From Clostridia bacterium (GTDB taxonomy: Bacteria > Bacillota > Clostridia > UMGS1840): a stretch of DNA of 64,000 nucleotides. The notes beneath the pieces were generated by a model. It made no database searches. It saw nothing but the letters and a program-made list of their open reading frames with translations, and was not told where the DNA came from. This document shows positions 2,078 to 27,664 of this stretch, one piece after another; within the stretch, counting starts at the first letter, position 1; the number at the start of each line of letters is the position of its first letter. The translations under genes were made by a program, and so were the position numbers. The stretch spans positions 5,234 to 69,233 of the forward strand of contig JAZRFJ010000028.1 in assembly GCA_045661305.1 (NCBI GenBank). The letters run 5' to 3'.

Positions 2078-3616
2078 ATGACACACACACAATGGGGCAT
2101 GATACTTGCTATCGCAGTATATTTGCTCGGAATGGTATATATAGGATATATATACTCCAAAAAGACAGAAAATGCCGGAGATTTTTATCTTGGCGGAAGA
2201 AAATTAGGACCTTTTGTAACAGCTATGAGTGCGGAAGCATCTGATATGTCCGGTTGGTTACTTATGGGACTTCCCGGTGTTGCACTTGCAGGAAGTATTG
2301 CAGAAGCGGCATGGACTGCTATCGGTCTTGCAATAGGCACATACATAAACTGGCTTATTGTTGCAAGAAGAATAAGATGTTACACAGAGGTTGCAGGAAA
2401 TTCTGTTACACTGCCTGAATTTTTCGAAAACAGATACAAGGATAAATCCAAGCTATTAAGATTGTTTTCTGCACTTTTTATTGTAATATTCTTCGTTCCG
2501 TATACAGCCTCAGGATTTGTTGCTTGCGGAAAAGTTTTTGCAACTGTATTTGGCGCTGAGTATGTTACAGCGATGATTATTTCAGCATTCGTTATTGTTC
2601 TTTATACATCTATGGGCGGATTTTCTGCTGCAAGTACAACAGACTTTATCCAGAGTATTGTTATGTCAATAGCTCTTATTATAGTTGTTGTATTTGGTAT
2701 TTCAAATGCAGGCGGAATAAGTTCAGTAATTAATAACGCAAAAGATTTAAACGGATATTTCAGTCTTACAACACTTTCAAACTGGATGACAGACGGAAGT
2801 GTAGGACAATACAACGGTCTTACAATAGCATCAACACTTGCATGGGGACTAGGCTACTTTGGAATGCCTCATATTCTTTTGAGATTTATGGCTATTGAAG
2901 ATGAAACAAAGCTCAAGCTTTCAAGAAGAGTTGCATCAATATGGGTTGTTATCGCTATGTTTGTTGCAATAGCTATCGGTGTAATCGGATATTCTCTTAT
3001 CCAAAACGGCACAGTAACCACAATAGCTGACTTTGCACAGAGAGAAAATATAATTATGGTTATCGCAACACTCATAAGTGAATACGGATTTGTTTTTGCG
3101 CTCGTTGGCGGAATTATTCTTGCAGGAATTCTTGCTTCAACAATGTCAACAGCAGATTCACAGCTTCTTGCTGCCGCGTCAAGTATTTCAGAGGACATTA
3201 CTCAAGGCGTTTTGGGAATTAAAATTTCTGAAAAGAAATCAATCCTTATCGCAAGACTTACTGTTATAGGAATAGCTATTATCGGTATATTCCTTGCACT
3301 TAATCCTGATTCATCAGTATTCAAAATCGTATCATTTGCATGGGCAGGCTTTGGTGCGACATTCGGCCCTGTTGTTCTTGCTGCACTTTTCTGGAAGCGT
3401 TCAAACAAATATGGTGCTTTAGCAGGTATGTTAAGTGGTGCTATTATGGTATTTGTATGGAAATTCTGTATTGCTAAGCTTGGCGGAGTATTTGCAATAT
3501 ATGAGCTTCTCCCTGCATTTATAGTTGCTTGTATCGCGATAATTGTCGTAAGCTTGGCTACAAAAGCTCCTGAAAAGGAAATAACAGACGAATTTGAAGC
3601 TGTTGTTAACGCATAA
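2078..3616 (+). CDS. putP: sodium/proline symporter (SSF family)
   Basis: 512 aa polytopic membrane protein. The N-terminal FYLGGRKLGPFVTAMSAEASDMSGWLLMGLPG block is characteristic of PutP. Confidence 0.8.
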   Translation: MTHTQWGMILAIAVYLLGMVYIGYIYSKKTENAGDFYLGGRKLGPFVTAMSAEASDMSGWLLMGLPGVALAGSIAEAAWTAIGLAIGTYINWLIVARRIRCYTEVAGNSVTLPEFFENRYKDKSKLLRLFSALFIVIFFVPYTASGFVACGKVFATVFGAEYVTAMIISAFVIVLYTSMGGFSAASTTDFIQSIVMSIALIIVVVFGISNAGGISSVINNAKDLNGYFSLTTLSNWMTDGSVGQYNGLTIASTLAWGLGYFGMPHILLRFMAIEDETKLKLSRRVASIWVVIAMFVAIAIGVIGYSLIQNGTVTTIADFAQRENIIMVIATLISEYGFVFALVGGIILAGILASTMSTADSQLLAAASSISEDITQGVLGIKISEKKSILIARLTVIGIAIIGIFLALNPDSSVFKIVSFAWAGFGATFGPVVLAALFWKRSNKYGALAGMLSGAIMVFVWKFCIAKLGGVFAIYELLPAFIVACIAIIVVSLATKAPEKEITDEFEAVVNA

Positions 3617-3643
3617 AAAATTTTAAAAAATAAATTAGAAAAA

Positions 3644-3682
3644 AGAGGTAATGAAAAAATTCTTTTCATTGCCTCTTTTTTT
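3644..3682 (+). terminator. rho-independent terminator of putP
   Basis: AGAGGTAATGAAAA / TTTTCATTGCCTCT stem followed by a T-run. Confidence 0.75.
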
Positions 3683-3725
3683 CACTTTTAATATTGCTCT
3701 CTTTTGTTAAAATAATAAAAGAGAG

Positions 3726-4802
3726 GTGGTGGAAAATATAGAAACAAAAAAAAATAATTTTCAAAATTACAAAAAAAATGATAAGAAAAACAAAATTTTT
3801 AAATTTAAGTTTTATTCTCTTGTTTTCAGTATTTACATTATATTTGTAGGATATGCAAATTCGGTAGCTGAAAACGAGGTTTGCGTTTATTCAGATTTAA
3901 GAACTCAAAAACTTATTCCCTCAGGTCAGGCTGTCGCAATGAAATTAAAAACAAATGGAGTTTTGGTTGTAGGAGTAAAAAACGATGCAAATCTTCCCGC
4001 AAAAAAGGCAGGAATAAAAAACGGCGATATCATAACGATGGTAAATGATACAAAAGTTTTAAACACTGCCCATTTTGAAGAAATAATACAAGCTGCAGAT
4101 GAGAATGAAATTACGCTTTTCATAAAAAGAGATGACAAAATTTACAGTACAAATATTATTCCCCAAAAAAATAATGGTTTTTGCGAAATAGGTCTTTGGC
4201 TTCGGGACAGTGCAGCAGGAATAGGAACAGTTTCGTTTTATTCGAGTGACAAAAAGCATTTCTACGCACTGGGACATCCGATAGCTGACAGCGATACTCA
4301 AAAAAATTTTTCCGTAAGAACAGGAAGCTTAGAGCTTGTTGACATTCACGGTGCAAAAAAAGGTAAGAAAAACAATCCTGGGGAGCTTATAGGAACGATG
4401 TCCGATTACGAGATAGGAAGCATTTTAACTAATACAAATTCAGGAATTTACGGTAAAATCAAAGACAAGGGTGTAATACTTGAAAAACCTATCGAGGTAA
4501 TGAAAAAAGAAGAAGTCAAAGAAGGCAAAGCTTATATTTTCACAACTGTGAGCGACTGCGGAGTAGAAAAATTTGAAATAAAAATTTCAAAAATTTTAGA
4601 CAACAATAAAAACAAAGATTTCATTATAAAAATAACTGATAAAAAGCTTATAGAAAAAACAGGCGGAATAGTTCAGGGAATGTCGGGTTCACCGATAATT
4701 CAGAATGGCCGAATTGTGGGAGCTGTGACACATGTTTTTGTGAATGATCCAACAAGAGGTTATGGGATATTTATTGAAAATATGCTAGCGGCGTCATCAT
4801 AA
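3726..4802 (+). CDS. spoIVB: SpoIVB peptidase (S55 sporulation signalling serine protease)
   Basis: 358 aa with N-terminal membrane anchor, PDZ-like segment (GIKNGDIITMVND) and the S55 catalytic block GGIVQGMSGSPIIQNGRIVGAVTHVF. Non-ATG (GTG) start as in the track. Confidence 0.85.
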   Translation: MVENIETKKNNFQNYKKNDKKNKIFKFKFYSLVFSIYIIFVGYANSVAENEVCVYSDLRTQKLIPSGQAVAMKLKTNGVLVVGVKNDANLPAKKAGIKNGDIITMVNDTKVLNTAHFEEIIQAADENEITLFIKRDDKIYSTNIIPQKNNGFCEIGLWLRDSAAGIGTVSFYSSDKKHFYALGHPIADSDTQKNFSVRTGSLELVDIHGAKKGKKNNPGELIGTMSDYEIGSILTNTNSGIYGKIKDKGVILEKPIEVMKKEEVKEGKAYIFTTVSDCGVEKFEIKISKILDNNKNKDFIIKITDKKLIEKTGGIVQGMSGSPIIQNGRIVGAVTHVFVNDPTRGYGIFIENMLAASS

Positions 4803-14372: not shown

Positions 14373-15239
14373 CTAATCTGTCTGTTTTGTAGTTTTTTTA
14401 AACACATCATCTATAAGCTTTTTTGTTTCCTCTTCATTCTGCACCATATAGGACGCTCCGCCTATATACTTAGGTGATGAGGGAAGCTGATAAGTATTGA
14501 GTGTTAAGTTCTTAAATTTATATAATGTTTTTGCAAATTTTGAAATATCCGACAGACCAATATCTGTTTTAAAATCGTCCTTTACCTTTTTATATATAGC
14601 AGGAAGCTTTGCGATTGTTTTTGCATTGAGTTTTTGTTCATAAAGTGCTTTTAAAAACTCTTGCTGTGCATGTATTCTTCCCAAATCAGCATTTGCATAT
14701 CCACTTCTGTACCTCACATACTGCTCTGCCATAGCACCGTCAAGATGTTGCATACCTTTATTAAGATGTATATAAAGTCCCTGGTCGGGGTCCTCATAGT
14801 GCATATTCATAGGAACATCAAAATCGACACCGCCAAGTGCATCTATGACATTTTTAAAACCGTCAGGGTGAATAATCACATAATTATCAATTTTTAAATC
14901 AAGCATGTCCTCCACTTTCTTTTTTACAAGCTGGGGACGCTTTTTCTCATCCTCTCTTTGATAAACGCTGTTTAGTTTTACATGTCTTCCATTATCAAGC
15001 ATAACTCTCGTATCACGCGGTAGCGACATAAGATTTAAGCTCTTGGTATGAGTATTTATGTTTGCAACCATAATGGTATCTGTAAGAAGGCGTCCTTTAT
15101 CCGTTGCCAGAATAAGAACATTTACATTTCCTTTTGTAAAAAAGCCTTTTGATAACATTATTGCCGACATAAGTATAAAAATTACTAAAGCAACACTCAT
15201 TATTTTTCTTAAATATCTGAAAAATAATCTATTATTCAT
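14373..15239 (-). CDS. LCP family protein, tandem paralog
   Basis: 288 aa with the same motif set (ILATDKGRLLTDTIMVANIN...SLPRDT...RYRSGYANADLGRIHAQQEF). Clearly paralogous to 13418-14347. Confidence 0.85.
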   Translation of the reverse strand: MNNRLFFRYLRKIMSVALVIFILMSAIMLSKGFFTKGNVNVLILATDKGRLLTDTIMVANINTHTKSLNLMSLPRDTRVMLDNGRHVKLNSVYQREDEKKRPQLVKKKVEDMLDLKIDNYVIIHPDGFKNVIDALGGVDFDVPMNMHYEDPDQGLYIHLNKGMQHLDGAMAEQYVRYRSGYANADLGRIHAQQEFLKALYEQKLNAKTIAKLPAIYKKVKDDFKTDIGLSDISKFAKTLYKFKNLTLNTYQLPSSPKYIGGASYMVQNEEETKKLIDDVFKKTTKQTD

Positions 15240-15282
15240 ATATATTCCTCACAATTTTCTAAAATGTTTTAATAGTTTTATA

Positions 15283-15363
15283 TTATTCTTTATTATGGAG
15301 TATAAACATTGTTACGGGTACAATTATTGCAATAGCTATCGCAAGCCAGGTGGTAAAATTCAT
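15283..15363 (-). CDS. possible 26-aa hydrophobic micro-protein (MNFTTWLAIAIAIIVPVTMFILHNKE)
   Basis: Not in the ORF track (too short). Strong RBS AAAGGAG 7 nt upstream of the ATG. One predicted TM helix. Lies directly upstream of the LCP pair. No homology evidence. Confidence 0.3.
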   Translation of the reverse strand: MNFTTWLAIAIAIIVPVTMFILHNKE

Positions 15364-15414
15364 AGTGTTTCTCCTTTCTTTCGGAAGTTCGTGTCAAGAC
15401 CAGATTAAAAATTA

Positions 15415-15705
15415 TTATTTATCATAATATTTATATCCGCAAAAAGGACATTTTGGATAATCTAAATCGTGCTTCTTAGCACATTTGGGACATTGGATTT
15501 GTGCTATACCATTCTCTTCTTGATGTTCAGTATGATAAAACTCAATTTTACCACATCTCTCACATGAATATATATCAACTTCCATTGCACCAGCAATTAT
15601 ATTCGGCAAATCGCCTAAAATCCAACCAGTTTCTCCTAATTGAATTTTTCTTGAACCACTGTATTTCATTTTATTATTACATCTTAAACATACTAACTCT
15701 TTCAT
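15415..15705 (-). CDS. hypothetical double zinc-ribbon protein
   Basis: 96 aa with CLRC...CERC and CPKC...CPFC pairs. RBS AAAGGAGA. Confidence 0.55.
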   Translation of the reverse strand: MKELVCLRCNNKMKYSGSRKIQLGETGWILGDLPNIIAGAMEVDIYSCERCGKIEFYHTEHQEENGIAQIQCPKCAKKHDLDYPKCPFCGYKYYDK

Positions 15706-15717
15706 ATCCTATCTCCT

Positions 15718-15734
15718 TTCGGAAACTTTCGACA
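15718..15734 (-). promoter_or_regulatory. tandem Spo0A-box-like heptamers (TGTCGAA agt TTCCGAA) in the leader of 15415-15705
   Basis: The minus strand reads TGTCGAA (perfect 0A box), a 3-bp spacer, then TTCCGAA (6/7 to TGNCGAA). This is the same 7+3+7 geometry as the tandem 0A boxes of B. subtilis abrB. Confidence 0.45.
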
Positions 15735-15740
15735 TTCTTT

Positions 15741-15936
15741 ATATAAAGACTGTATAATCCGGATGCCAAGCATTTTTTATGAATTGACAACTCCGTTGTC
15801 ATGAATTGGCTCTGCCATGAATTCTCACTGACGCTCCATGAATTGAATTGCCTTAATGCACGAAGTGCAATTCATGAGCTGTAAGGCTCAATTCATGAAA
15901 CCTTTGATTTCAATTCATGCCGCAGGCAATTCATTG
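15741..15936 (+). repeat. repeat family R1, copy A: promoter-like module plus an array of short hairpins punctuated by CATGAATT (x4) then AATTCATG (x4)
   Basis: Direct-repeat partner at 18241-18438. Octamers start at 15779, 15801, 15817, 15838 and at 15869, 15890, 15912, 15928. Each inter-octamer segment is a small palindrome. The left end carries TGTATAAT on plus and TTGGCA-N17-TTATAT on minus. Confidence 0.85.
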
Positions 15937-15955
15937 CAGTCACAGACCGCATACG

Positions 15956-16123
15956 CTCGTGCCAAGTCAGGCGAACAGTGAATAATAGGACCTACTATTT
16001 TCTGTTCTTGTTTTCCTAAACAAAATCCATCAGAACCCGCAGGAATATTAGATTTTCCTGCCCGATATGTAAATATTTATTATCGGCAAACTAATCTTTT
16101 AAATTGTATGGACTTGACACAAG
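15956..16123. repeat. repeat family R2, copy A: 168-bp unit bounded by 13-bp terminal inverted repeats (MITE-like, switch-like, or structured RNA)
   Basis: CTCGTGCCAAGTC ... GACTTGACACAAG. Both ends are conserved with copy B and the centre has diverged apart from a covarying hairpin at 16039-16061. The unit ends 20 nt from the stop codon of 16143-16679. Confidence 0.8.
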
Positions 16124-16142
16124 TATGTAAACCCACTAAAAA

Positions 16143-16679
16143 CTATAAATTAAGTTTTCCTTTCATCTGTTTTGCATAAGGAATATCATCTATGCATATT
16201 TCAACAAACTGTATTACTGCATTGGCATAATCATTCCAATCTGCATCCTCATCTAAAATGACTTCATCAACGCCTAAATACTGATAACCACTTTTACAAG
16301 GCAACAACAAAGACACATACTTGCCTTGCATATCATCCCAACCAAGATGTATATATCTTTTTCCTTTTATTGCTTTTTTGAAACCTTTAATGCCATAATA
16401 TTTTTCTTCAAAAGTATTTTTACCCGAAAAATCATTGTATGATTCGTGCTGATTCCATTGTTCAATACCATATTTAATTTTTTCAGCTAGTTCTTCTTTG
16501 GTATATGGGCTTTTTAATTCTATAGGGTAATACGCTGTACAAAACCACGGCTCGTTTATTATTGTTCCATCCGCTAATTTTTGAGGTTCGTTGGTTTCAC
16601 TTTGCGGAAAAATAACGATGTCTTTTTCCTCATTCACATAAATATCAATCCATCTGAATTCTTCAAAATTAACTTTCAT
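16143..16679 (-). CDS. hypothetical cytoplasmic protein (acidic, about 178 aa)
   Basis: ORF 16143-16721 in the track. I prefer the start at MKVNFEEF (16679) because of the RBS GAAAGGTG. No family recognised with confidence. Size and acidity are compatible with an immunity-type protein, but that is a guess. Confidence 0.6.
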   Translation of the reverse strand: MKVNFEEFRWIDIYVNEEKDIVIFPQSETNEPQKLADGTIINEPWFCTAYYPIELKSPYTKEELAEKIKYGIEQWNQHESYNDFSGKNTFEEKYYGIKGFKKAIKGKRYIHLGWDDMQGKYVSLLLPCKSGYQYLGVDEVILDEDADWNDYANAVIQFVEICIDDIPYAKQMKGKLNL

Positions 16680-16711
16680 TTTTCCACACCTTTCTACATC
16701 ATTATATACCA

Positions 16712-16728
16712 TTCGACACAATTCTTAC
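16712..16728 (-). promoter_or_regulatory. Spo0A-box-like site (GTAAGAA ttg TGTCGAA) upstream of 16143-16679
   Basis: Perfect TGTCGAA on minus (16718-16712) with a degenerate partner 3 bp upstream. TGGTATATAAT (extended -10-like) follows immediately downstream. Confidence 0.4.
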
Positions 16729-16913
16729 TCGTGTCAAGTCAGGAGAACAGTGAATAATAGGAACTACTATTTTTGCCCTATTTTTTCAACTGTTTTTCTT
16801 TTAACACTTTTCCCTAGAACCCGTGAGAACACTGGATTTTCTCGCATTCGATAGTATATGTAAATATCAAAATCGGCAAACTAATCTTTTAAATTGTATG
16901 GACTTGACACGAG
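16728..16913. repeat. repeat family R2, copy B: 186-bp unit with perfect 13-bp terminal inverted repeats
   Basis: CTCGTGTCAAGTC (16728-16740) and GACTTGACACGAG (16901-16913) are exact reverse complements. Internal hairpin at 16823-16845. The unit ends 20 nt from the stop codon of 16933-17541. Confidence 0.85.
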
Positions 16914-16932
16914 TAACATGAATTTTAATTCT

Positions 16933-17541
16933 TCAATACAAGGATACGGGCTCCCAACCATAATGCTTGATGTAATTAATATCTAATCCGTTATGCTCTG
17001 CGTACATTCGCATGAATTCTATCTCTGCTTGATCGTTATCGTGATGGGTCATAAATTTATCATAAAGACCTGTATAGCCTTTTGTAAACTCTTTGATACT
17101 TTCAGCATAGTGCTCTCCGTCACCAGCTTTCTCAACAGATACAACAACATATCCGTTTTCTGTTTCTTTTAAATGAAAACAAGCAGGCATCTCTCCGCCA
17201 CCACCCTGCACCATTGTATCCCCCTCTAAGCGATAACCACCCGACCAGAAATTACCAAACACCAAATGCTCTCCATCACGGTCCGTCTCTTCTAAAATCA
17301 CAAACGAAGGAATCCAAACATCACCATAGCTTGCGTGACGCTCTGCTTCTTCATTAAACCAGTCACAAATAGCTGCAATAGCAAGGTTATCACCCACATA
17401 TACAAACGAGGGCATCTGTGTACCATCCTTTTGAGTAATATTAAATTGTGGTCCTCCGGAAGCAAGCGGTGGTTTTTCTGTCTTTTGACCGCAGCTGCAC
17501 AAAAGAAAAACAATCAAAAATAACACTAATATTTTTTTCAT
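16933..17541 (-). CDS. hypothetical lipoprotein
   Basis: 202 aa. Signal peptide with lipobox (LFLIVFLLCSC, Cys at the cleavage site). No recognised domain. Confidence 0.7.
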   Translation of the reverse strand: MKKILVLFLIVFLLCSCGQKTEKPPLASGGPQFNITQKDGTQMPSFVYVGDNLAIAAICDWFNEEAERHASYGDVWIPSFVILEETDRDGEHLVFGNFWSGGYRLEGDTMVQGGGGEMPACFHLKETENGYVVVSVEKAGDGEHYAESIKEFTKGYTGLYDKFMTHHDNDQAEIEFMRMYAEHNGLDINYIKHYGWEPVSLY

Positions 17542-17627
17542 AAAAACACTTCCTTTATATTATTTTCATATATCATATCAAAATAAGTGTGCTATAAACC
17601 TGACTTTTCTATCATTATTCAATAAAC

Positions 17628-17644
17628 TTCGACACAATTCGACT
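17628..17644 (-). promoter_or_regulatory. tandem Spo0A-box-like heptamers (AGTCGAA ttg TGTCGAA) upstream of the lipoprotein gene
   Basis: The minus strand reads CTTGACA aaa GTCGAA ttg TGTCGAA. This is a perfect box plus a 6/7 box with a 3-bp spacer, directly downstream of a TTGACA hexamer. Confidence 0.45.
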
Positions 17645-17729
17645 TTTGTCAAGACCGGCTAAAAAAATCACATCTGTATAAAAGCAAGCATATAATATAC
17701 AAAAAAGAAAAATTTTGTAGGTGATTTAT

Positions 17730-18212
17730 ATGTTTAACAATTATATACCTAATTTTAAGCAAAGACCTTATGCGTTTGCAAAAATAAATGGAAGTAATGA
17801 TTACCCAAATATAAACGGGATTGCATACTTTTATAAAGTAGAATCAGGCGTAATAGTTTCCATACAACTAAAAGGTCTTCCTGTATCAGATGATATTTGT
17901 AAAAAACCAATATTTGCAGTTCATATCCACAGTGGTGGCAGTTGCACAGGCAACAGCACCGACCCTTTCGCAAACGCCATGACACACTATAATCCAAACA
18001 ATTGCAATCACCCCTACCATGCAGGCGACTTACCGCCTATATTTGGTGCGAACGGGATTGGTTTCTCTGCATTTTTAACAAATCGATTTTCTCCTGAAGA
18101 GATAATAGGAAAAACTATTATAATCCATTCCGCACCCGATGACTTTACAACTCAACCATCAGGAAATTCAGGTATGAAAATTGCTTGCGGTGTGATTTCT
18201 TCTGTATATTAG
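17730..18212 (+). CDS. sodC: Cu/Zn superoxide dismutase family protein, no signal peptide
   Basis: FAVHIHSGGSC, HYNP, NHPYHAGDLP and IIIHSAPDD give the full set of His/Asp metal ligands. I prefer the start at 17730 (RBS AGGTGA) over the GTG at 17721. Confidence 0.8.
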   Translation: MFNNYIPNFKQRPYAFAKINGSNDYPNINGIAYFYKVESGVIVSIQLKGLPVSDDICKKPIFAVHIHSGGSCTGNSTDPFANAMTHYNPNNCNHPYHAGDLPPIFGANGIGFSAFLTNRFSPEEIIGKTIIIHSAPDDFTTQPSGNSGMKIACGVISSVY

Positions 18213-18240
18213 GCGATTTTATCTTGATATACGCTTTTTG

Positions 18241-18438
18241 ATATAAAGACTGTATAATCCGGATTCCAAGCTTGTTAAATGAATTGACAACTGTCGTTGT
18301 CATGAATTGGCTACGCCATGAATTCTCGCTTTGCTCCATGAATTGAATTGCCTTTTAAATGCACGAAGTGCAATTCATGAGTCGCAAGACTCAATTCATG
18401 AAATCTTTGATTTCAATTTATGCCGAAGGCAATTCATT
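18241..18438 (+). repeat. repeat family R1, copy B
   Basis: Collinear with 15741-15936 and in the same orientation. Differences cluster in hairpin loops or are compensated in stems. Lies 29 nt downstream of the sodC stop and is followed by an 11-bp perfect hairpin at 18438-18462. Confidence 0.85.
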
Positions 18439-18514
18439 GATTTCAAGCTTTGCTTGAAATCATTATATCACCTTTGCAATAAATTGTCAATTTTTTTAAC
18501 AAAATATACACAAT

Positions 18515-18550
18515 AATGACACTCACAAAATTTATGAGTGTCATTTTATA
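18515..18550 (+). terminator. rho-independent terminator (plus-strand sense, possibly bidirectional)
   Basis: AATGACACTCA / TGAGTGTCATT stem followed by TTTATAT. Confidence 0.6.
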
Positions 18551-18564
18551 TAGATTATTAAAAC

Positions 18565-18813
18565 CTAATTCAATTCTGAAATTTTATCTATACAGCATTT
18601 ACATATTTTTTTGTTTTCAAAGTCGATAAGGTCCTCGTCTGCCCCGCAAAATAAACAAGAAATTTCATATTTTTTTATGATAACTTCTCCGTCATTTCCG
18701 ATAAAAAATTCCAAAACATCTTCCTCCGAAACATCAAGTGCTTTTCTAATCGGCTTTGGTATAAGAAGTCTTCCAAGCGGGTCGATTTGCTTTGTTATTC
18801 CTGTTGCTTTCAT
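18565..18813 (-). CDS. AbrB/MazE/SpoVT-family DNA-binding protein fused to a C-terminal CxxC...CxxC zinc-ribbon
   Basis: The N-terminus MKATGITKQIDPLGRLLIPKPIRKAL is a typical swapped-hairpin AbrB fold signature. C-terminus has CLFCG...CKCC. Start at 18813 with RBS GGAGGAAG. Confidence 0.8.
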   Translation of the reverse strand: MKATGITKQIDPLGRLLIPKPIRKALDVSEEDVLEFFIGNDGEVIIKKYEISCLFCGADEDLIDFENKKICKCCIDKISELN

Positions 18814-18865
18814 ACTTCTTCCTCCATTTTTATACATTTGTTTTCTGATTCTTTATTTTTTCTAC

Positions 18866-18894
18866 ATTATATCATGGAAAAAGAGCGATGTCAA
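18866..18894 (-). promoter_or_regulatory. near-consensus sigma-A promoter of the AbrB-like gene
   Basis: Minus strand TTGACA, 17 nt, TATAAT, with a TGa extended -10. A perfect TGTCGAA heptamer lies further upstream at 18940-18946 (minus sense). Confidence 0.65.
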
Positions 18895-18951
18895 GGATTT
18901 TGGCAAAAAAACCCAAAATATGTAATTTTTGCCACATATTTCGACAAATTT

Positions 18952-19731
18952 CTACTTTACAACTGTCTTTAAGTATGTCAAGGTTTTTGGGACAAAGTCA
19001 ATTTGCGTCAAAAAAAGTCTTTCCGAGAACGAAAAAAGCTCGTTGTGGAAAAGCTCACCGAGATTAAATTTCAAAAAAGAACTAAGCTCAGCCTCAGTTA
19101 TATACTTTATACATTTATAAGCATCAAAGCTTATTTTTTTTATGTGGTCACCCGAAACACTCATACACTCGTCACAAGAAAGAATGTTTTCAATGAAATT
19201 ATAAAAAACAAATTCGCTGTCATTAAACTTCTTCTGGCAGAACATACACTCCGACATTTCGGGAACAACACCCAGAATAACACAAAGTCTTATTTCAAAC
19301 GCAGACTTTATAAGAAGGGACGACTTAACATTATTTGAAAGTGCATATAAAGAGTTGAGAGCAAGCCTTAATATTTCTTCGTCAGGCTGTTCATAAGTAC
19401 CTGTCAACCTAACTGCCTCCAAAATATAGCAACCAACGGCAAACGCAGTAATATCCTTTTTAATATCAAAAAAATTAGTAATTATATTACATTCCCTTAC
19501 AGTATAAATCTGCTTGTTGCGTGTTAAGATATAATCTCCGTAGCAAAACATATTTATTCCTGCCATATCTTTACGCTTTAAACTTTTTGCACCGGGTGCT
19601 TTTGCGTTTATAAGTCCATATTCATCTGTATAGACAGTAAGCATTTTGTCGCCCTCGTTAATCGCAGTTTCACCGACAACAATCCCTTTTGCAGTTAAAA
19701 AGTCCAAGAAAGCACCCCCATTATGAAACAA
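18952..19731 (-). CDS. recO: DNA repair protein RecO
   Basis: 259 aa. N-terminal OB-fold pattern (KGIVVGETAINEGDKMLTVYTDEYGLINAKAPGAKS) and C-terminal CxxC...CxxC zinc motif (CMFC...CDEC). The start codon is uncertain because the TTG at 19731 sits inside the T-tract of the plsY terminator. Confidence 0.8.
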   Translation of the reverse strand: MFHNGGAFLDFLTAKGIVVGETAINEGDKMLTVYTDEYGLINAKAPGAKSLKRKDMAGINMFCYGDYILTRNKQIYTVRECNIITNFFDIKKDITAFAVGCYILEAVRLTGTYEQPDEEILRLALNSLYALSNNVKSSLLIKSAFEIRLCVILGVVPEMSECMFCQKKFNDSEFVFYNFIENILSCDECMSVSGDHIKKISFDAYKCIKYITEAELSSFLKFNLGELFHNELFSFSERLFLTQIDFVPKTLTYLKTVVK

Positions 19732-25115: not shown

Positions 25116-26297
25116 TTATATTAATTTTTGTGTTTCAAGTGCAATCATAAGCTCTTCATTTGTAGGAATAACAAGAGTTTTAACTTTTGCACCCTCTTTT
25201 GTAATATCAACAGTACCTCTTGTGCTGTTCTTATCCTGGTCGATTTCTATTCCCATAAACTCAAGACCTGAAACTATGTCAGCTCTCATTTTTGCATCGT
25301 TTTCACCAATACCGGCTGTAAATACAACTGCATCTACTCCGCCCATTGCTGCAGCATATGCACCTATATATTTTTTAACACCGTATTCAAATATTTCAAG
25401 CGCAAGTGCACATCTTTCATCGCCTGCTTCTTTTCCTGCACACAAATCTCTGAAGTCTGATGATTTTCCTGAAATACCTAAAACTCCTGATTCTTTGTTA
25501 AGAATTGTGAGCACTTCTGATACTGAAATACCTCTCTTATTAGCAATAAACTCAACTATTGCAGGGTCTAAATCTCCAGAACGGGTTCCCATTGCTATAC
25601 CTGCAAGCGGTGTAAGTCCCATTGTTGTATCAACTGATTTTCCGCCGTTTACAGCAGTTATTGAGGAACCGTTTCCTAAATGACAGGTAACAATTTTGAG
25701 ATCTTTAGCATCTTTTCCAAGATACTCTGCAGCTTTCATTGATACATACTTATGGCTTGTTCCATGAAAACCGTATCTTCTGATACCATACTCCTTATAA
25801 AACTCGTAAGGAAGTGCATATATATATGCTTTTTGAGGCATTGACTGATGGAAAGCAGTATCAAACACGCCAACCTGTGGAACATTCGGAAGAATTTTTT
25901 TGCATGCTTCAATACCGATTATGTTCGGAGGATTGTGAAGCGGAGCAAGCTCGATACATTCATCAAGTGCATTCATAACTGCTTCTGTGATAACACATGA
26001 GCCGTTGAATTTCTCACCGCCGTGAACAACTCTGTGTCCAATAGCATTGATTTCTTCCATAGATGAGATAACACCCATTTCTTTATCTGTAAGGCTGTTA
26101 AGAACAGCGTTTATAGCATCGCTATGGTCTTTTAAAGGAAGCTCTTTTTCAAACTTCTGTCCGTCTTTTTCATGCTTTAATTTTCCGTCTATACCTATTC
26201 TTTCGCATAAGCCTTTAGCCATAACTGTTTCATTATCCATATTTATAAGCTGATATTTAAGTGATGAGCTTCCGGCATTGATTACTAATACTTTCAT
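25116..26297 (-). CDS. ackA: acetate kinase
   Basis: 393 aa. [17 protein letters not shown] and the HRVVHGG and FHGTSH motifs. Confidence 0.97.
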
Positions 26298-26366
26298 TTT
26301 TTATTTTTCCTTTCTTTTTCTCTCTTTTTTCTTTTGTATTTATTTGTGTAATGCTTAAATTTTAAC

Positions 26367-26475
26367 TTGGATTTTGGATGAGAAAATTTGACTTTCGAGG
26401 AAGCTTGCCGCAGGTGTATATAGATACATCGAGGAAAAGCTGACGATGAAAACGAATTTTATCGCCAAAAGCCAA
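26367..26475 (+). repeat. imperfect long palindrome with a central GGTGTAT-atag-ATACATC hairpin in the pta-ackA spacer (possible degenerate relative of family E)
   Basis: The outer arms TTGGATTTTGGATGAGAAAATT and AATTTTATCGCCAAAAGCCAA are partly complementary. The central hairpin at 26413-26430 and the flanking CGCAG...CGAGG resemble the CGAAG-hairpin-CGAGAGG core of E1/E2. Confidence 0.35.
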
Positions 26476-26481
26476 TTAAAA

Positions 26482-27471
26482 TTACTGAGCTTGTACGGCT
26501 GTTATTGCCACTACTCCTACTATGTCTTCGCTGCTGCAACCACGGGATAAGTCATTTATCGGCATTGCAATACCCTGTGTTATACGACCGTACGCTTCTG
26601 CTTTTGCAAGACGCTGAACGAGTTTATAACCGATGTTTCCTGCATCTAAGTCACGGAAACACAGAACATTTGCTTTACCTGCAACATCACTGTCAGGAGC
26701 TTTTGATGAGCCGACTGACGGAACGATAGCAGCATCAAGCTGAAGCTCTCCGTCAACCTTAAGGTTGGGGTTATTTTCTTTACATATTCTTGTAGCTTCT
26801 ACAACCTTGTCCACATCTTGATGCTTTGCACTTCCCTTTGTTGAGTGTGAAAGCATTGCAACGATTGCTTCTTTTTCAACTAAAAGCTCAAAAGATTCAG
26901 CACTGCAAGCAGCTATTGCAGCAAGCTTTTCAGGGTCAGGATTCTGTTCTAAACCGCTGTCAGCGAATATAAATGTTCCGTCCGCACCATATTCACAGTT
27001 TGGAACTTCCATAAGGAAAAATGCTGATACAAGCTTAACACCAGGTTTTGTTTTTATAATCTGTAAGCTTGGGCGAAGTGTGTTTGCAGTTGAGTGACAT
27101 GCACCAGAAACAACACCGTCTGCGTCACCTGCCTTAACCATAAGACAAGCATAGTACATATAATCTCCCAAAGCTGTTTTTTTAGCTTCTTCATAAGTAA
27201 GACCTTTTGATTTTCTCAGTTCAACAAAAAGGTTTAAGTATTCTTCTGTTTTTTCATAAGTAAACGGGTCAATAATTTTAGCTTTTTTAATATCAAGACC
27301 TGCACTGTTTTTCTCTACTTCTTCCTTTGTACCAATAATAATGAGGTCGGCAATATCTTCTTTTAATATAATTTCAGCTGCCTCAAATGTTCTTCTGTCC
27401 ATTGATTCGGGCAGAACAATTGTTTTTTTGTTCATTCTTGCTCTTTCTTTGATTCTGTCAATAAAAGCCAT
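26482..27471 (-). CDS. pta: phosphate acetyltransferase
   Basis: Start placed at MAFIDRIKERA (27471, RBS GGAGGAG) rather than the track start at 27543. Typical Pta sequence (TIVLPES..., GADGVVSGA, HSTKGS). Confidence 0.95.
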   Translation of the reverse strand: MAFIDRIKERARMNKKTIVLPESMDRRTFEAAEIILKEDIADLIIIGTKEEVEKNSAGLDIKKAKIIDPFTYEKTEEYLNLFVELRKSKGLTYEEAKKTALGDYMYYACLMVKAGDADGVVSGACHSTANTLRPSLQIIKTKPGVKLVSAFFLMEVPNCEYGADGTFIFADSGLEQNPDPEKLAAIAACSAESFELLVEKEAIVAMLSHSTKGSAKHQDVDKVVEATRICKENNPNLKVDGELQLDAAIVPSVGSSKAPDSDVAGKANVLCFRDLDAGNIGYKLVQRLAKAEAYGRITQGIAMPINDLSRGCSSEDIVGVVAITAVQAQ

Positions 27472-27664
27472 TTTATCTCCTCCTGAAATTAAGGGAAAAA
27501 CCCATAATATTATATGATAATCATTATATACCAAAAAATACAATTTTTCAAGTCTTTTTTGAATTTTTTAAAATTTCATTTCATTTTTCTTTTTTTATTT
27601 GACTTTTATACATTATTATGGTACAATTCATTTATAAATACAGTAATTAAGAGGTGTAACAGAT

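Follow-up and report, generated by a model that had tools for sequence, protein, structure and literature searches.

Short repeats of the repetitive extragenic palindromic (REP) kind, with BIME and REPIN, as well as miniature inverted-repeat transposable elements such as Correia and BOX, lie outside genes, form hairpins and occur in many modular copies; transcribed together with adjoining genes, they can act as sources of promoters or RNA-processing sites. Here, we describe an islet of small genes in a Clostridia bacterium, at positions 15283-18564 of a window (the whole analysed stretch of DNA, 64,000 nt; contig JAZRFJ010000028.1, positions 5,234-69,233), in which two structured repeats, R1 and R2, occur in two copies each (R1a, R1b, R2a and R2b). 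Two described systems have to be compared with R1 in particular. Gut-1 (RF01706) is an orphan non-coding RNA from human gut metagenomes, which was judged to be an RNA on covariation, and for which no organism, partner, gene association or function was given (Weinberg et al. 2010, PMC2864571). The 23S rRNA intervening sequences of Coxiella and Leptospira carry an S23p (PF05635) open reading frame (ORF), those of Coxiella together with three to four GACAGAT repeats (PMC4990558).

We lean towards reading the islet as part of a hot spot in which dispersed structured repeats, the Gut-1-like R1 and the intergenic spacer R2, have been assembled together with accessory genes by recombination between repeat copies. 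The evidence is the block insertion or deletion polymorphism between close relatives and the reuse of genes with their repeats elsewhere, where breakpoints fall at the ends of R2 and within it.

The variable gap between the AbrB-type and LCP genes

The initial annotation held that the islet is accessory, and comparison with relatives bears this out. Through RecO homologues we reached five related contigs (numbers with the prefix L denote contigs or loci of relatives, metagenome-assembled genomes (MAGs), metagenomes or viruses that were compared with the window). In all five, recO is followed by a gene of an AbrB-type regulator. Three of them (L137, L139 and L141) extend to the LCP genes, which come next; DUF378 follows LCP in L139 and L141, and hrcA is present in L141. 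The content of the gap between the AbrB-type gene and LCP is as follows:

L137 (93% RecO): a Cu/Zn superoxide dismutase (SOD) gene and a 96-aa zinc-ribbon gene
L139 (76% RecO identity): one DUF2798 gene
L141: an FAD oxidoreductase gene
Window: the genes of SOD, a lipoprotein (lipo202) and a 178-aa protein (acid178), and the zinc-ribbon gene (ZnR96)

The nearest relative, L137, has a nucleotide identity of ~93% to the window in the flanks. Blastn breakpoints and junction sequences delimit two blocks that the window has in addition:

15740-17643, no strand assigned: 1.9-kb block of R1a, R2a, acid178, R2b and lipo202
18220-18436, no strand assigned: R1b array and tail

Since gene content differs in each relative and these two blocks are absent from L137, the gap between recO/AbrB and LCP is genuinely a variable hot spot, in which repeats mark both limits of the differences. 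The AbrB-type gene itself is outside the variable islet, because it is kept beside recO in all relatives. Both junctions of the 1.9-kb block lie inside a module that is intact in L137, CTTGACA...TGTTGAA (CTTGACAAAACCATAGTAAGAATGTTGAAAG), and the right junction consists of R1a with its tail, not of a partial R2. L137 is devoid of the R1b array yet keeps the promoter and the P0 hairpin that adjoin it in the window, L141 keeps the R1 tail without an array, and no decayed R1 copy was found in L137 or L141 by a search with hidden Markov models (HMMs). The two R1 copies had been described as bracketing 2.3 kb; they are not the brackets of one unit, as L137 has neither of them and still has the SOD gene, which also rules out recombination between R1a and R1b as the source of the L137 arrangement.

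The features of the islet and its border are listed below, with the basis of each assignment:

15283-15400, minus strand: solo CTTGACAC module with a hydrophobic micro-ORF of 26 codons (15283-15363), whose codon 6 is TGA in L137
15415-15705, minus strand: ZnR96, a 96-aa double CxxC protein; weak zinc-ribbon matches; also in L137
15728-15734, minus strand: predicted Spo0A box TGTCGAA ~23 nt upstream of the ZnR96 start, with a degenerate TTCCGAA 10 nt later; box scan
15736-15778, minus strand: R1 tail, common to R1a and R1b (R1b copy at 18236-18278); alignment, promoter scan
15779-15936, minus strand: R1a, a Gut-1-like array without P0 or a promoter of its own, which R2a abuts instead; nhmmer, alignment
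15953-16128, minus strand: R2a, a chimeric R2 copy; alignment with R2 of L164 and L142
16143-16679, minus strand: acid178, of a ~175-aa Clostridia-only protein family; no Pfam domain
16712-16738, minus strand: 5' module of acid178, CTTGACAC...TGTCGAA, overlapping the 3' inverted repeat of R2b; module scan
16725-16916, minus strand: R2b, a ~190-nt intergenic element with perfect 16-nt terminal inverted repeats; alignment, nhmmer
16933-17541, minus strand: lipo202, a lipoprotein; no Pfam or NCBIfam family
17628-17657, minus strand: 5' module of lipo202, CTTGACA followed by two tandem boxes of the Spo0A type, AGTCGAA and TGTCGAA, 10-11 nt apart; module scan, upstream junction of the 1.9-kb block
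17730-18212, plus strand: SOD without signal peptide; Pfam Sod_Cu 4e-24, gene table of L137
18279-18438, minus strand: R1b, a Gut-1-like array of four CAUGAAUUG+hairpin units followed by four inverted units; nhmmer, 9-mers, alignment
18439-18461, minus strand: P0 hairpin GATTTCAAGC-AAA-GCTTGAAATC, at the 5' end of R1b on the sense strand; a covarying hairpin stands there in most R1 relatives
18462-18490, minus strand: perfect sigma-70 promoter TTGACA-17-TATAAT with an upstream TG; promoter scan, 12/12
18565-18813, minus strand: AbrB/SpoVT-type regulator with a C-terminal CxxC pair; Pfam; adjoins recO in all relatives

The promoter region at 18462-18490 lies directly before LCP in L139 and after the AbrB terminator in L137 and L141, and by this placement the promoter is ancestral to the site. 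The hot spot would be situated just downstream of the promoter that drives the LCP operon in relatives. In the window, this consensus promoter now faces R1b and then the 3' end of the convergent SOD gene; it may give a stand-alone R1b RNA or an antisense transcript. The SOD gene, which is convergent with the R1b/AbrB side, is also present in L137.

R1 arrays and PF05635 proteins

R1a (15741-15936) and R1b (18241-18438) have a column identity of 87%, and nine of the nine exact CATGAATTG/CAATTCATG 9-mers of the 64-kb window fall inside them, with 1.2 expected. HMMs built from relatives find exactly two R1 copies and exactly two R2 copies in the window, at the places where they had first been noticed. 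They had been described on the plus strand, which has to be corrected: the sense strand of R1 and R2 is the window minus strand, on which nhmmer scores R1b with 172 bits and R1a with 176 bits, as compared to only 35-42 bits on the plus strand (35 for R1b). Each copy comprises four plus four short covarying hairpins with the invariant CATGAATTG linker between them. A unit is an invariant word and a short hairpin of free sequence, and on the window minus strand the element reads as four CAUGAAUUG+variable hairpin units, a centre and four inverted units.

A search of genome and viral collections with a pattern of three spaced 9-mers revealed the R1 design at at least 120 genome loci, almost all of them in MAGs of gut or rumen Clostridia, and in 8 of 16 viral matches, e.g., between terminase and portal genes (L004) or after terminase (L015); in phages, the arrays sit between co-transcribed genes. 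In a dozen MAGs, R1 is 80-88% identical over 160-200 nt and the flanking genes are unrelated. Stems of at least 3 bp are closed by 70% of 542 distinct inter-linker spacers vs. 2.3% of shuffles, and arrays come in fours (unit patterns DDDD 24 times, IIII 21 times and DDDDIIII 20 times). RNAalifold predicts covarying hairpins and a long-range stem linking the first linker with the centre. Hairpin stems on the window minus strand include 13 G.U pairs vs. 4 A.C pairs, and the gene downstream in this orientation is co-oriented in 11 of 12 related loci. Pairing of the 9-mers of the two arms as a ladder of four-way junctions was considered and dropped, as there are no compensatory changes in the 9-mers; it is also contradicted by the L080 arrays, which mix non-complementary AACTTCAC and CAATTCATG linkers, and by AAATCAT variants (L109, L128, L139) that are uncompensated in the other arm.

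L080 (627-4061) contains a row of four small orphan genes, one with DUF3885. Behind each come four hairpin+CAATTCATG units, then a terminator and an extended -10 box; in front of some of these arrays there is an array of a second type, whose linker is AACTTCAC. Another dispersed repeat, CCTTCCCCTTGAGGGGAAGG...GGATGAGGTG, is found in intergenic regions of L059 (700-900), L080 (1790-2030 and 3686-3900), L141 (12920-12970) and L186 (1450-1560), and gives rise to spurious ORFs such as ...PLRGRPPSPTGEG.

Among the 25 most frequent of the 176 Pfam families represented in 150 neighbours of R1 arrays, the only enriched one is PF05635 (S23p/Avd-like four-helix-bundle, '23S rRNA intervening-sequence' protein), and none is a recombinase or transposase. 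To our knowledge, stand-alone members of this very large family, which has the fold of Avd of diversity-generating retroelements, have no known role. A PF05635 gene is present at 14 R1-type loci. The ORF lies between the two arms in L099 and L134, and 18-30 nt after the full palindrome in L097, L104, L109, L128 and L139. Relatives with arrays of 82-85% identity have the gene as well (L097, L104 and L059), the L059 copy being a pseudogene. In L139 (3905-4480), an array and a PF05635 gene are inserted between pta and ackA, in a gap of 177-185 nt that is empty in L141 and in the window (25116-27543).

Viral loci that were chosen through the PF05635 protein only also carry arrays, with other linkers. 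Among distant four-helix-bundle (4HB) genes, 17 of 23 have in the 300 nt upstream a 7-mer that occurs four or more times, vs. none of 56 control ORFs. The linker word changes with the lineage of the PF05635 protein, as can be seen at loci of distant PF05635 genes:

ATATCGA: L134, L186
TATATCA/TGATGAT: L049, L182
GTGAAAT: L178, L179
GTGAAGC/CCTTCAC: L180, L181

In viral contigs L178, L180, L181 and L183 (at about 760-1020), the array and the PF05635 gene are directly downstream of tRNA genes and a terminator. Viral contig L186 carries at 1090-1130, after a TATAAT box, the sequence TGGTATAATGATTTCAAGCAAAGCTTGAAATC, a hairpin identical to P0 of the window (window 18439-18468); it precedes an array with a different linker (ATATCGA) and a 4HB gene.

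The 5' arms in L178, L179 and L182 score as Gut-1, with 60-73 bits, on the strand of the protein gene. Because such arrays upstream of PF05635 genes score as Gut-1 and the Gut-1 consensus equals an R1 arm but for one or two linker bases, R1 is, by sequence design, an ORF-less member of a broader hairpin-array family in which Gut-1 is the one catalogued subtype. The architecture had at first not been recognised from any described system; R1 belongs to a very widespread family of Gut-1 design. The Gut-1 model does not match ATGAATT-type arrays of L097, L099, L109 and L139. The Rfam search of the whole window and of the islet gave no family for R1 or R2, and no description of these elements was found in the literature on the repeat words, on miniature inverted-repeat transposable elements (MITEs) in gut Clostridia or on PF05635.

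The R1 tail is promoter-like on the sense strand (TTGGCA-17/18-TATATA), and its plus strand also scores (TCGACA-18-TATAAT), so that either strand may be the active one. L141 has the tail but no array, and in L168 it stands in front of every small gene. In the latter (2230-3960), a promoter-like module, TTGCATCTAAAC...TATAGT...AATGTCGAA, precedes each of four small genes that follow one another, an acid178 homologue among them; this module resembles the R1 tail with the Spo0A box upstream of the zinc-ribbon gene of the window.

Most likely, an R1 array would be transcribed, fold into hairpins and offer its repeated linkers to a cognate multimeric four-helix-bundle protein. The ORF-less R1a and R1b would in that case be orphaned sites, or sites acting in trans, that travel with phages and spread by recombination.

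R2 spacers and the assembly of the islet

R2a (~15953-16128) and R2b (16725-16916) have an alignment identity of 80%, and R2b scores 230 bits in nhmmer. The terminal inverted repeats reported for these units are real, those of R2b being perfect over 16 nt. With the core word, the R2 family was found in 22 metagenome contigs. Its copies measure ~190 nt, are 85-95% alike and have unrelated flanks; the 150-nt body is conserved to 85-95%. They invariably occupy the gene-sense strand and reach from just behind a stop codon to the ribosome-binding site of the following gene. Both copies of the window end ~20 nt past a stop codon, as had been noted, but this is no rule of the family (about 26 nt in L064). 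The inverted ends (14-16 nt) are paired in 86% of cells across 13 copies, with about ten G.U pairs and about six A.C mismatches by hand count, and an inner hairpin has two compensatory pairs. In four to five independent contexts, R2 stops abruptly after CTTGACACGAG. In L144, four copies separate orphan genes, one of which encodes a DUF4357/GIY-YIG protein; two copies are found in each of L150, L159, L161 and L162. R2 is a dispersed intergenic element not described before. Some copies, in L146, L153, L161 and L171 (5640-5740), have their 5'-ward part replaced or interrupted by a conserved segment, GGGTACCCGAGAACCTTGATACTCGCAAGCTCG.

The acid178 block (16065-16749), made up of the module, the ORF and ~63 nt from the start of R2a, has a counterpart of 94% identity in L164, flanked by a PHP-domain gene and rdgB; beyond this block, the R2 sequences of the window and L164 diverge. 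R2a is chimeric, because its identity with the R2 beside acid178 in L164 stops after the first ~63 nt; the remainder is of the L142 subtype. The lipo202 block (16728-17556), with lipo202 and the whole of R2b, recurs at 92% in L173 among other neighbours. At the 3' end of R2b, the acid178 and lipo202 blocks have 22 nt in common (16728-16749), just upstream of the 5' module of acid178. Homologues of lipo202 with 81-84% identity occur without R2. Elsewhere, R2 and half-R1 arrays separate single orphan genes (L144 and L080, respectively). Since the acid178 and lipo202 blocks recur with parts of R2 at other loci, the genes evidently move with pieces of the repeats, with joints at R2 ends or inside R2.

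The 5' module CTTGACA..GTCGAA had been put forward as a conserved boundary of the genes. It is real, with 3 matches vs. 0.03 expected, and it holds predicted Spo0A boxes of an ordinary kind. The 0A-box consensus is TGTCGAA (PMC3485338). Perfect boxes occur 7 times in the window, and 4 of them are within 15728-18946 (about 0.3 expected), all four on the gene-sense strand; they lie 25-45 nt before the starts of ZnR96, acid178 and lipo202 and upstream of the AbrB promoter, some in tandem, 10-11 nt apart. These predicted sites make the module similar to Spo0A-regulated promoters, and genes of a SpoIVB peptidase and a Spo0A_C-domain protein are present in the organism. The difference is that the spacing from CTTGACA varies from 3 to 17 nt, so the module is no fixed promoter. 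The same spacing rules out CTTGACA...GTCGAA as a -35/-10 pair, and the spacings required of a sigma-D, sigma-K or extracytoplasmic function (ECF) promoter are not found. The two halves can pair as a hairpin with a conserved G.U pair. Most simply, the GTCGAA half of the shared boundary would be an ordinary regulatory signal. Solo R2 left ends (CAAGACC) are present in the window, as had been observed. The initial claim that the same modules build all junctions goes too far: the divergent region between SOD and lipo202 has only the short module. The AbrB-type gene has its own perfect TTGACA-17-TATAAT promoter (18866-18981, minus strand), and a second CCTTGACAT copy with a TGTCGAA box is located ~50-90 nt upstream, within the 3' end of recO.

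R2 would accordingly be a ready-made intergenic spacer ending in a CTTGACA/Spo0A-box module just before the next ribosome-binding site. The islet would have been built by general or short-homology recombination between dispersed repeat copies, possibly via circles excised between direct repeats, and without a dedicated integrase. Of the mechanisms considered, the most economical is recombination between dispersed repeats.

Several points weigh against this account. The transcribed strand, the RNA ends and the processing of R1 are inferred, as is the binding of PF05635 proteins to the linkers, which is derived from co-variation only. The Gut-1 covariance model gives no match in the window at the gathering threshold (50 bits), none on 15200-19000 at E<=5 and none on R1b even at E<=10. 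No PF05635 homologue was found in the 64-kb window by tblastn, and the R1 copies of the window are ORF-less. Three breakpoints coincide with the short CTTGACA core, which would fit site-specific recombination too. No target-site duplications were seen at the R1 and R2 junctions inspected. The R1b difference may be a gain here or a loss in L137, as L137 retains the promoter and P0 and L141 the tail.

The breakpoints at the CTTGACA core lead to the first alternative, a dedicated cassette system like integrons or clusters of attC sites lacking integrases (CALINs), which we consider unlikely but still a serious rival. R2 would be an attC-like site with its crossover at the core, and a recombinase encoded elsewhere would excise and insert circles of a gene and its R2. 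This could account for the co-oriented single orphan genes that are each followed by R2 (the four-copy array of L144, the two-copy loci), for lipo202 travelling with its downstream R2, for the meeting of the shared blocks in the 22-nt overlap, for the sharp end after CTTGACACGAG, for the junction with L137 at the same core and for the solo cores. The repeats of Vibrio cholerae are alike within a superintegron, to a degree comparable with the 85-95% likeness of R2. The R2 ends, however, are unlike the attC R''/R' cores RYYYAAC/GTTRRRY, its body is sequence-conserved, unlike most attC sites, one breakpoint is inside the body (chimeric R2a), and the right junction of the 1.9-kb block has no partial R2. 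The absence of attC, integrase and transposase signatures from the window, stated initially, is upheld: no attC-like core was found there, the ORF map and domain check show housekeeping genes and doubtful ORFs without a recombinase domain, and no recombinase is enriched beside arrays (the family count covers R1 neighbours only). What remains of the cassette-like array is a mosaic with shared boundaries, indel blocks and reuse of genes with repeats; support for an integron-like enzyme system is lacking.

It is also improbable, in our opinion, that R1 and R2 owe their conservation to an ordinary role in gene expression in cis, as leaders, promoters, terminators or RNA-stabilising structures, and were moved only passively, with the genes they serve, into an islet filled by ordinary horizontal transfer. 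Generic signals would hardly be expected to show the link to PF05635 and lineage-specific linkers. The identity of 80-88% (R1) and 85-95% (R2) is far above that of the unrelated surrounding genes; R1b is present or absent between genomes that are ~93% identical in the flanks, and lipo202 homologues exist without R2. The features that agree with such a role are that R2 always fills the space from the stop codon to the next ribosome-binding site on the sense strand, with predicted Spo0A boxes at its 3' end, that the R1 tail and the P0 region are promoter-like, that each half-array of L080 is followed by a terminator and an extended -10 box, and that phage arrays lie between co-transcribed genes.

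A further possibility, to which we give little credence, would make R1 and R2 non-autonomous DNA transposons of a MITE or REP/BIME-like type. A transposase acting in trans, e.g., an HUH/Y1 enzyme that recognises hairpins, would mobilise them, hairpins and linkers would serve as recognition signals in the DNA, and the PF05635 gene would be cargo. REP elements with REP-associated tyrosine transposases (RAYT) have conserved short words beside hairpins, and the inverted-repeat ends, the many copies per genome and locus and the presence/absence polymorphism would be in line with it. The junctions examined have no target-site duplication, though, and no transposase is among the 25 listed neighbour families; the excess of G.U over A.C on the sense strand favours an RNA, and the co-variation of the linker with the PF05635 lineage indicates that this gene is no mere cargo. 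Moreover, Gut-1 was judged to be RNA from covariation (PMC2864571). Simple local duplication of R1 and R2 within the locus, named initially as the outcome that would count against a cassette array and suggested by only two copies of each in the 64-kb window, has next to no probability and is refuted by the hundreds of related copies in other genomes, phage contigs and metagenomes, including the genome loci of R1 and the metagenome contigs of R2 given above.

As to the genes of the islet and its surroundings, the earlier calls of Sod_Cu, an AbrB/MazE-type fold, LCP and RecO stand, all four being recognised by Pfam. The zinc-ribbon matches of ZnR96 are weak and under the Pfam cut-offs. The 178-aa protein, the 202-aa protein and the micro-ORF have no Pfam match, and the orphans no NCBIfam assignment. 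The micro-ORF had been counted as a gene, which is doubtful: its codon 6 is TGG in the window and TGA in the nearest relative (L137, 2616-2696), where the ribosome-binding site is also weaker, and it is probably not a conserved gene. Neither the islet proteins nor the 4HB protein matched a defence-system family. Plasmids and cultured phages contained no blastn match to the islet, no recorded protein was an exact match of the LCP protein of the window, and a search for tRNA and tmRNA found none.

Comparison with known systems

The R2 arrays resemble integrons and CALINs in that co-oriented, mostly orphan genes are each followed by a conserved imperfect palindrome, gene content varies, and a gene is reused with its downstream repeat. 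They differ in that neither intI nor attC cores were found in the window, and in that the R2 body is ~190 nt long, sequence-conserved and equipped with expression signals for the next gene. The ends of R2 are TTACTCGTGTCAAGTC...GACTTGACACGAGTAA and those of R1 CAATGAATTG...CAATTCAT. Arrays are present in L144 and L080 and genes are reused with repeats, as a cassette-wise organisation would have it, but a breakpoint falls within R2, and the 1.9-kb block does not have a partial R2 at each of its ends.

With MITEs, R2 shares terminal inverted repeats, small size, the absence of an ORF and many copies, and neither a target-site duplication at the junctions inspected nor, among the families listed, a transposase of a parent insertion sequence was seen. 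REP and BIME elements with RAYT have conserved palindromes and a conserved 5' tetranucleotide; R1 is their reverse, with variable hairpins and invariant linkers. R1 is, in addition, tied to the PF05635 gene, with no Y1/RAYT or other transposase among the 25 most frequent neighbour families and no target-site duplication.

Two ideas may be joined in a wider proposal, which we put forward only tentatively. Gut-1-type arrays and PF05635 proteins would form an unrecognised ribonucleoprotein module, in which the protein of each lineage recognises a particular linker of 7-9 nt, present four to five times; the module would be selfish or regulatory, spread by phages, and would take in ORF-bearing rRNA intervening sequences as a special case. 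The R2 arrays would be a Clostridia counterpart of integron arrays, with a recombinase acting at the CTTGACA core. If the pairing is true, it provides a function for both orphans, Gut-1 (since 2010) and PF05635, explains the look of ORF-bearing intervening sequences and adds a class of phage-borne intergenic elements in gut Clostridia. It is a concrete pairing, as the linker word repeated between hairpins varies with the lineage of the adjoining protein. The R2 arrays and the reuse of genes with repeats show the shuffling of accessory genes in uncultured Clostridia and provide markers for such hot spots in MAGs.

Like the 23S rRNA intervening sequences, the elements of L099 and L134 have a PF05635 ORF bracketed by inverted-repeat arms. 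Tandem heptamers precede the ORF (GACAGAT in Coxiella), and selfish insertion into transcribed regions with ORF decay (the L059 pseudogene) is another shared trait. Intervening sequences lie in helix 25 or 45 of 23S rRNA and are excised by RNase III. In contrast to them, the elements described here are located between protein genes and in phage operons, not in rRNA (a search of the window for rRNA found none), each arm is built of many small hairpins and not of one long stem, and the copies of the window are ORF-less. Among described elements, ORF-bearing rRNA intervening sequences stand closest to the complete element.

The consensus of Gut-1, CAaUGAAAU-hp-GUGAAAU-hp-GUGAAAU-hp-GUGAAAU (hp, hairpin), has the design of one arm of R1. 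Common to both are short covarying hairpins, an invariant linker of 7-9 nt (UGAAAU vs. UGAAUU in R1) and gut Clostridia-type sequence. R1 of the window has at least three short covarying hairpins with an invariant single-stranded linker, as Gut-1 has, and also the two-arm build, with two arms of about four units in inverted orientation to each other and a lineage-specific linker. Its linker, AUGAAUUG, is one or two bases off. The published motif comprises one arm only, whereas the two-arm palindrome, the link to PF05635 and the alternative linkers are first seen here. R1 is a variant of the Gut-1 kind with a newly seen protein partner.

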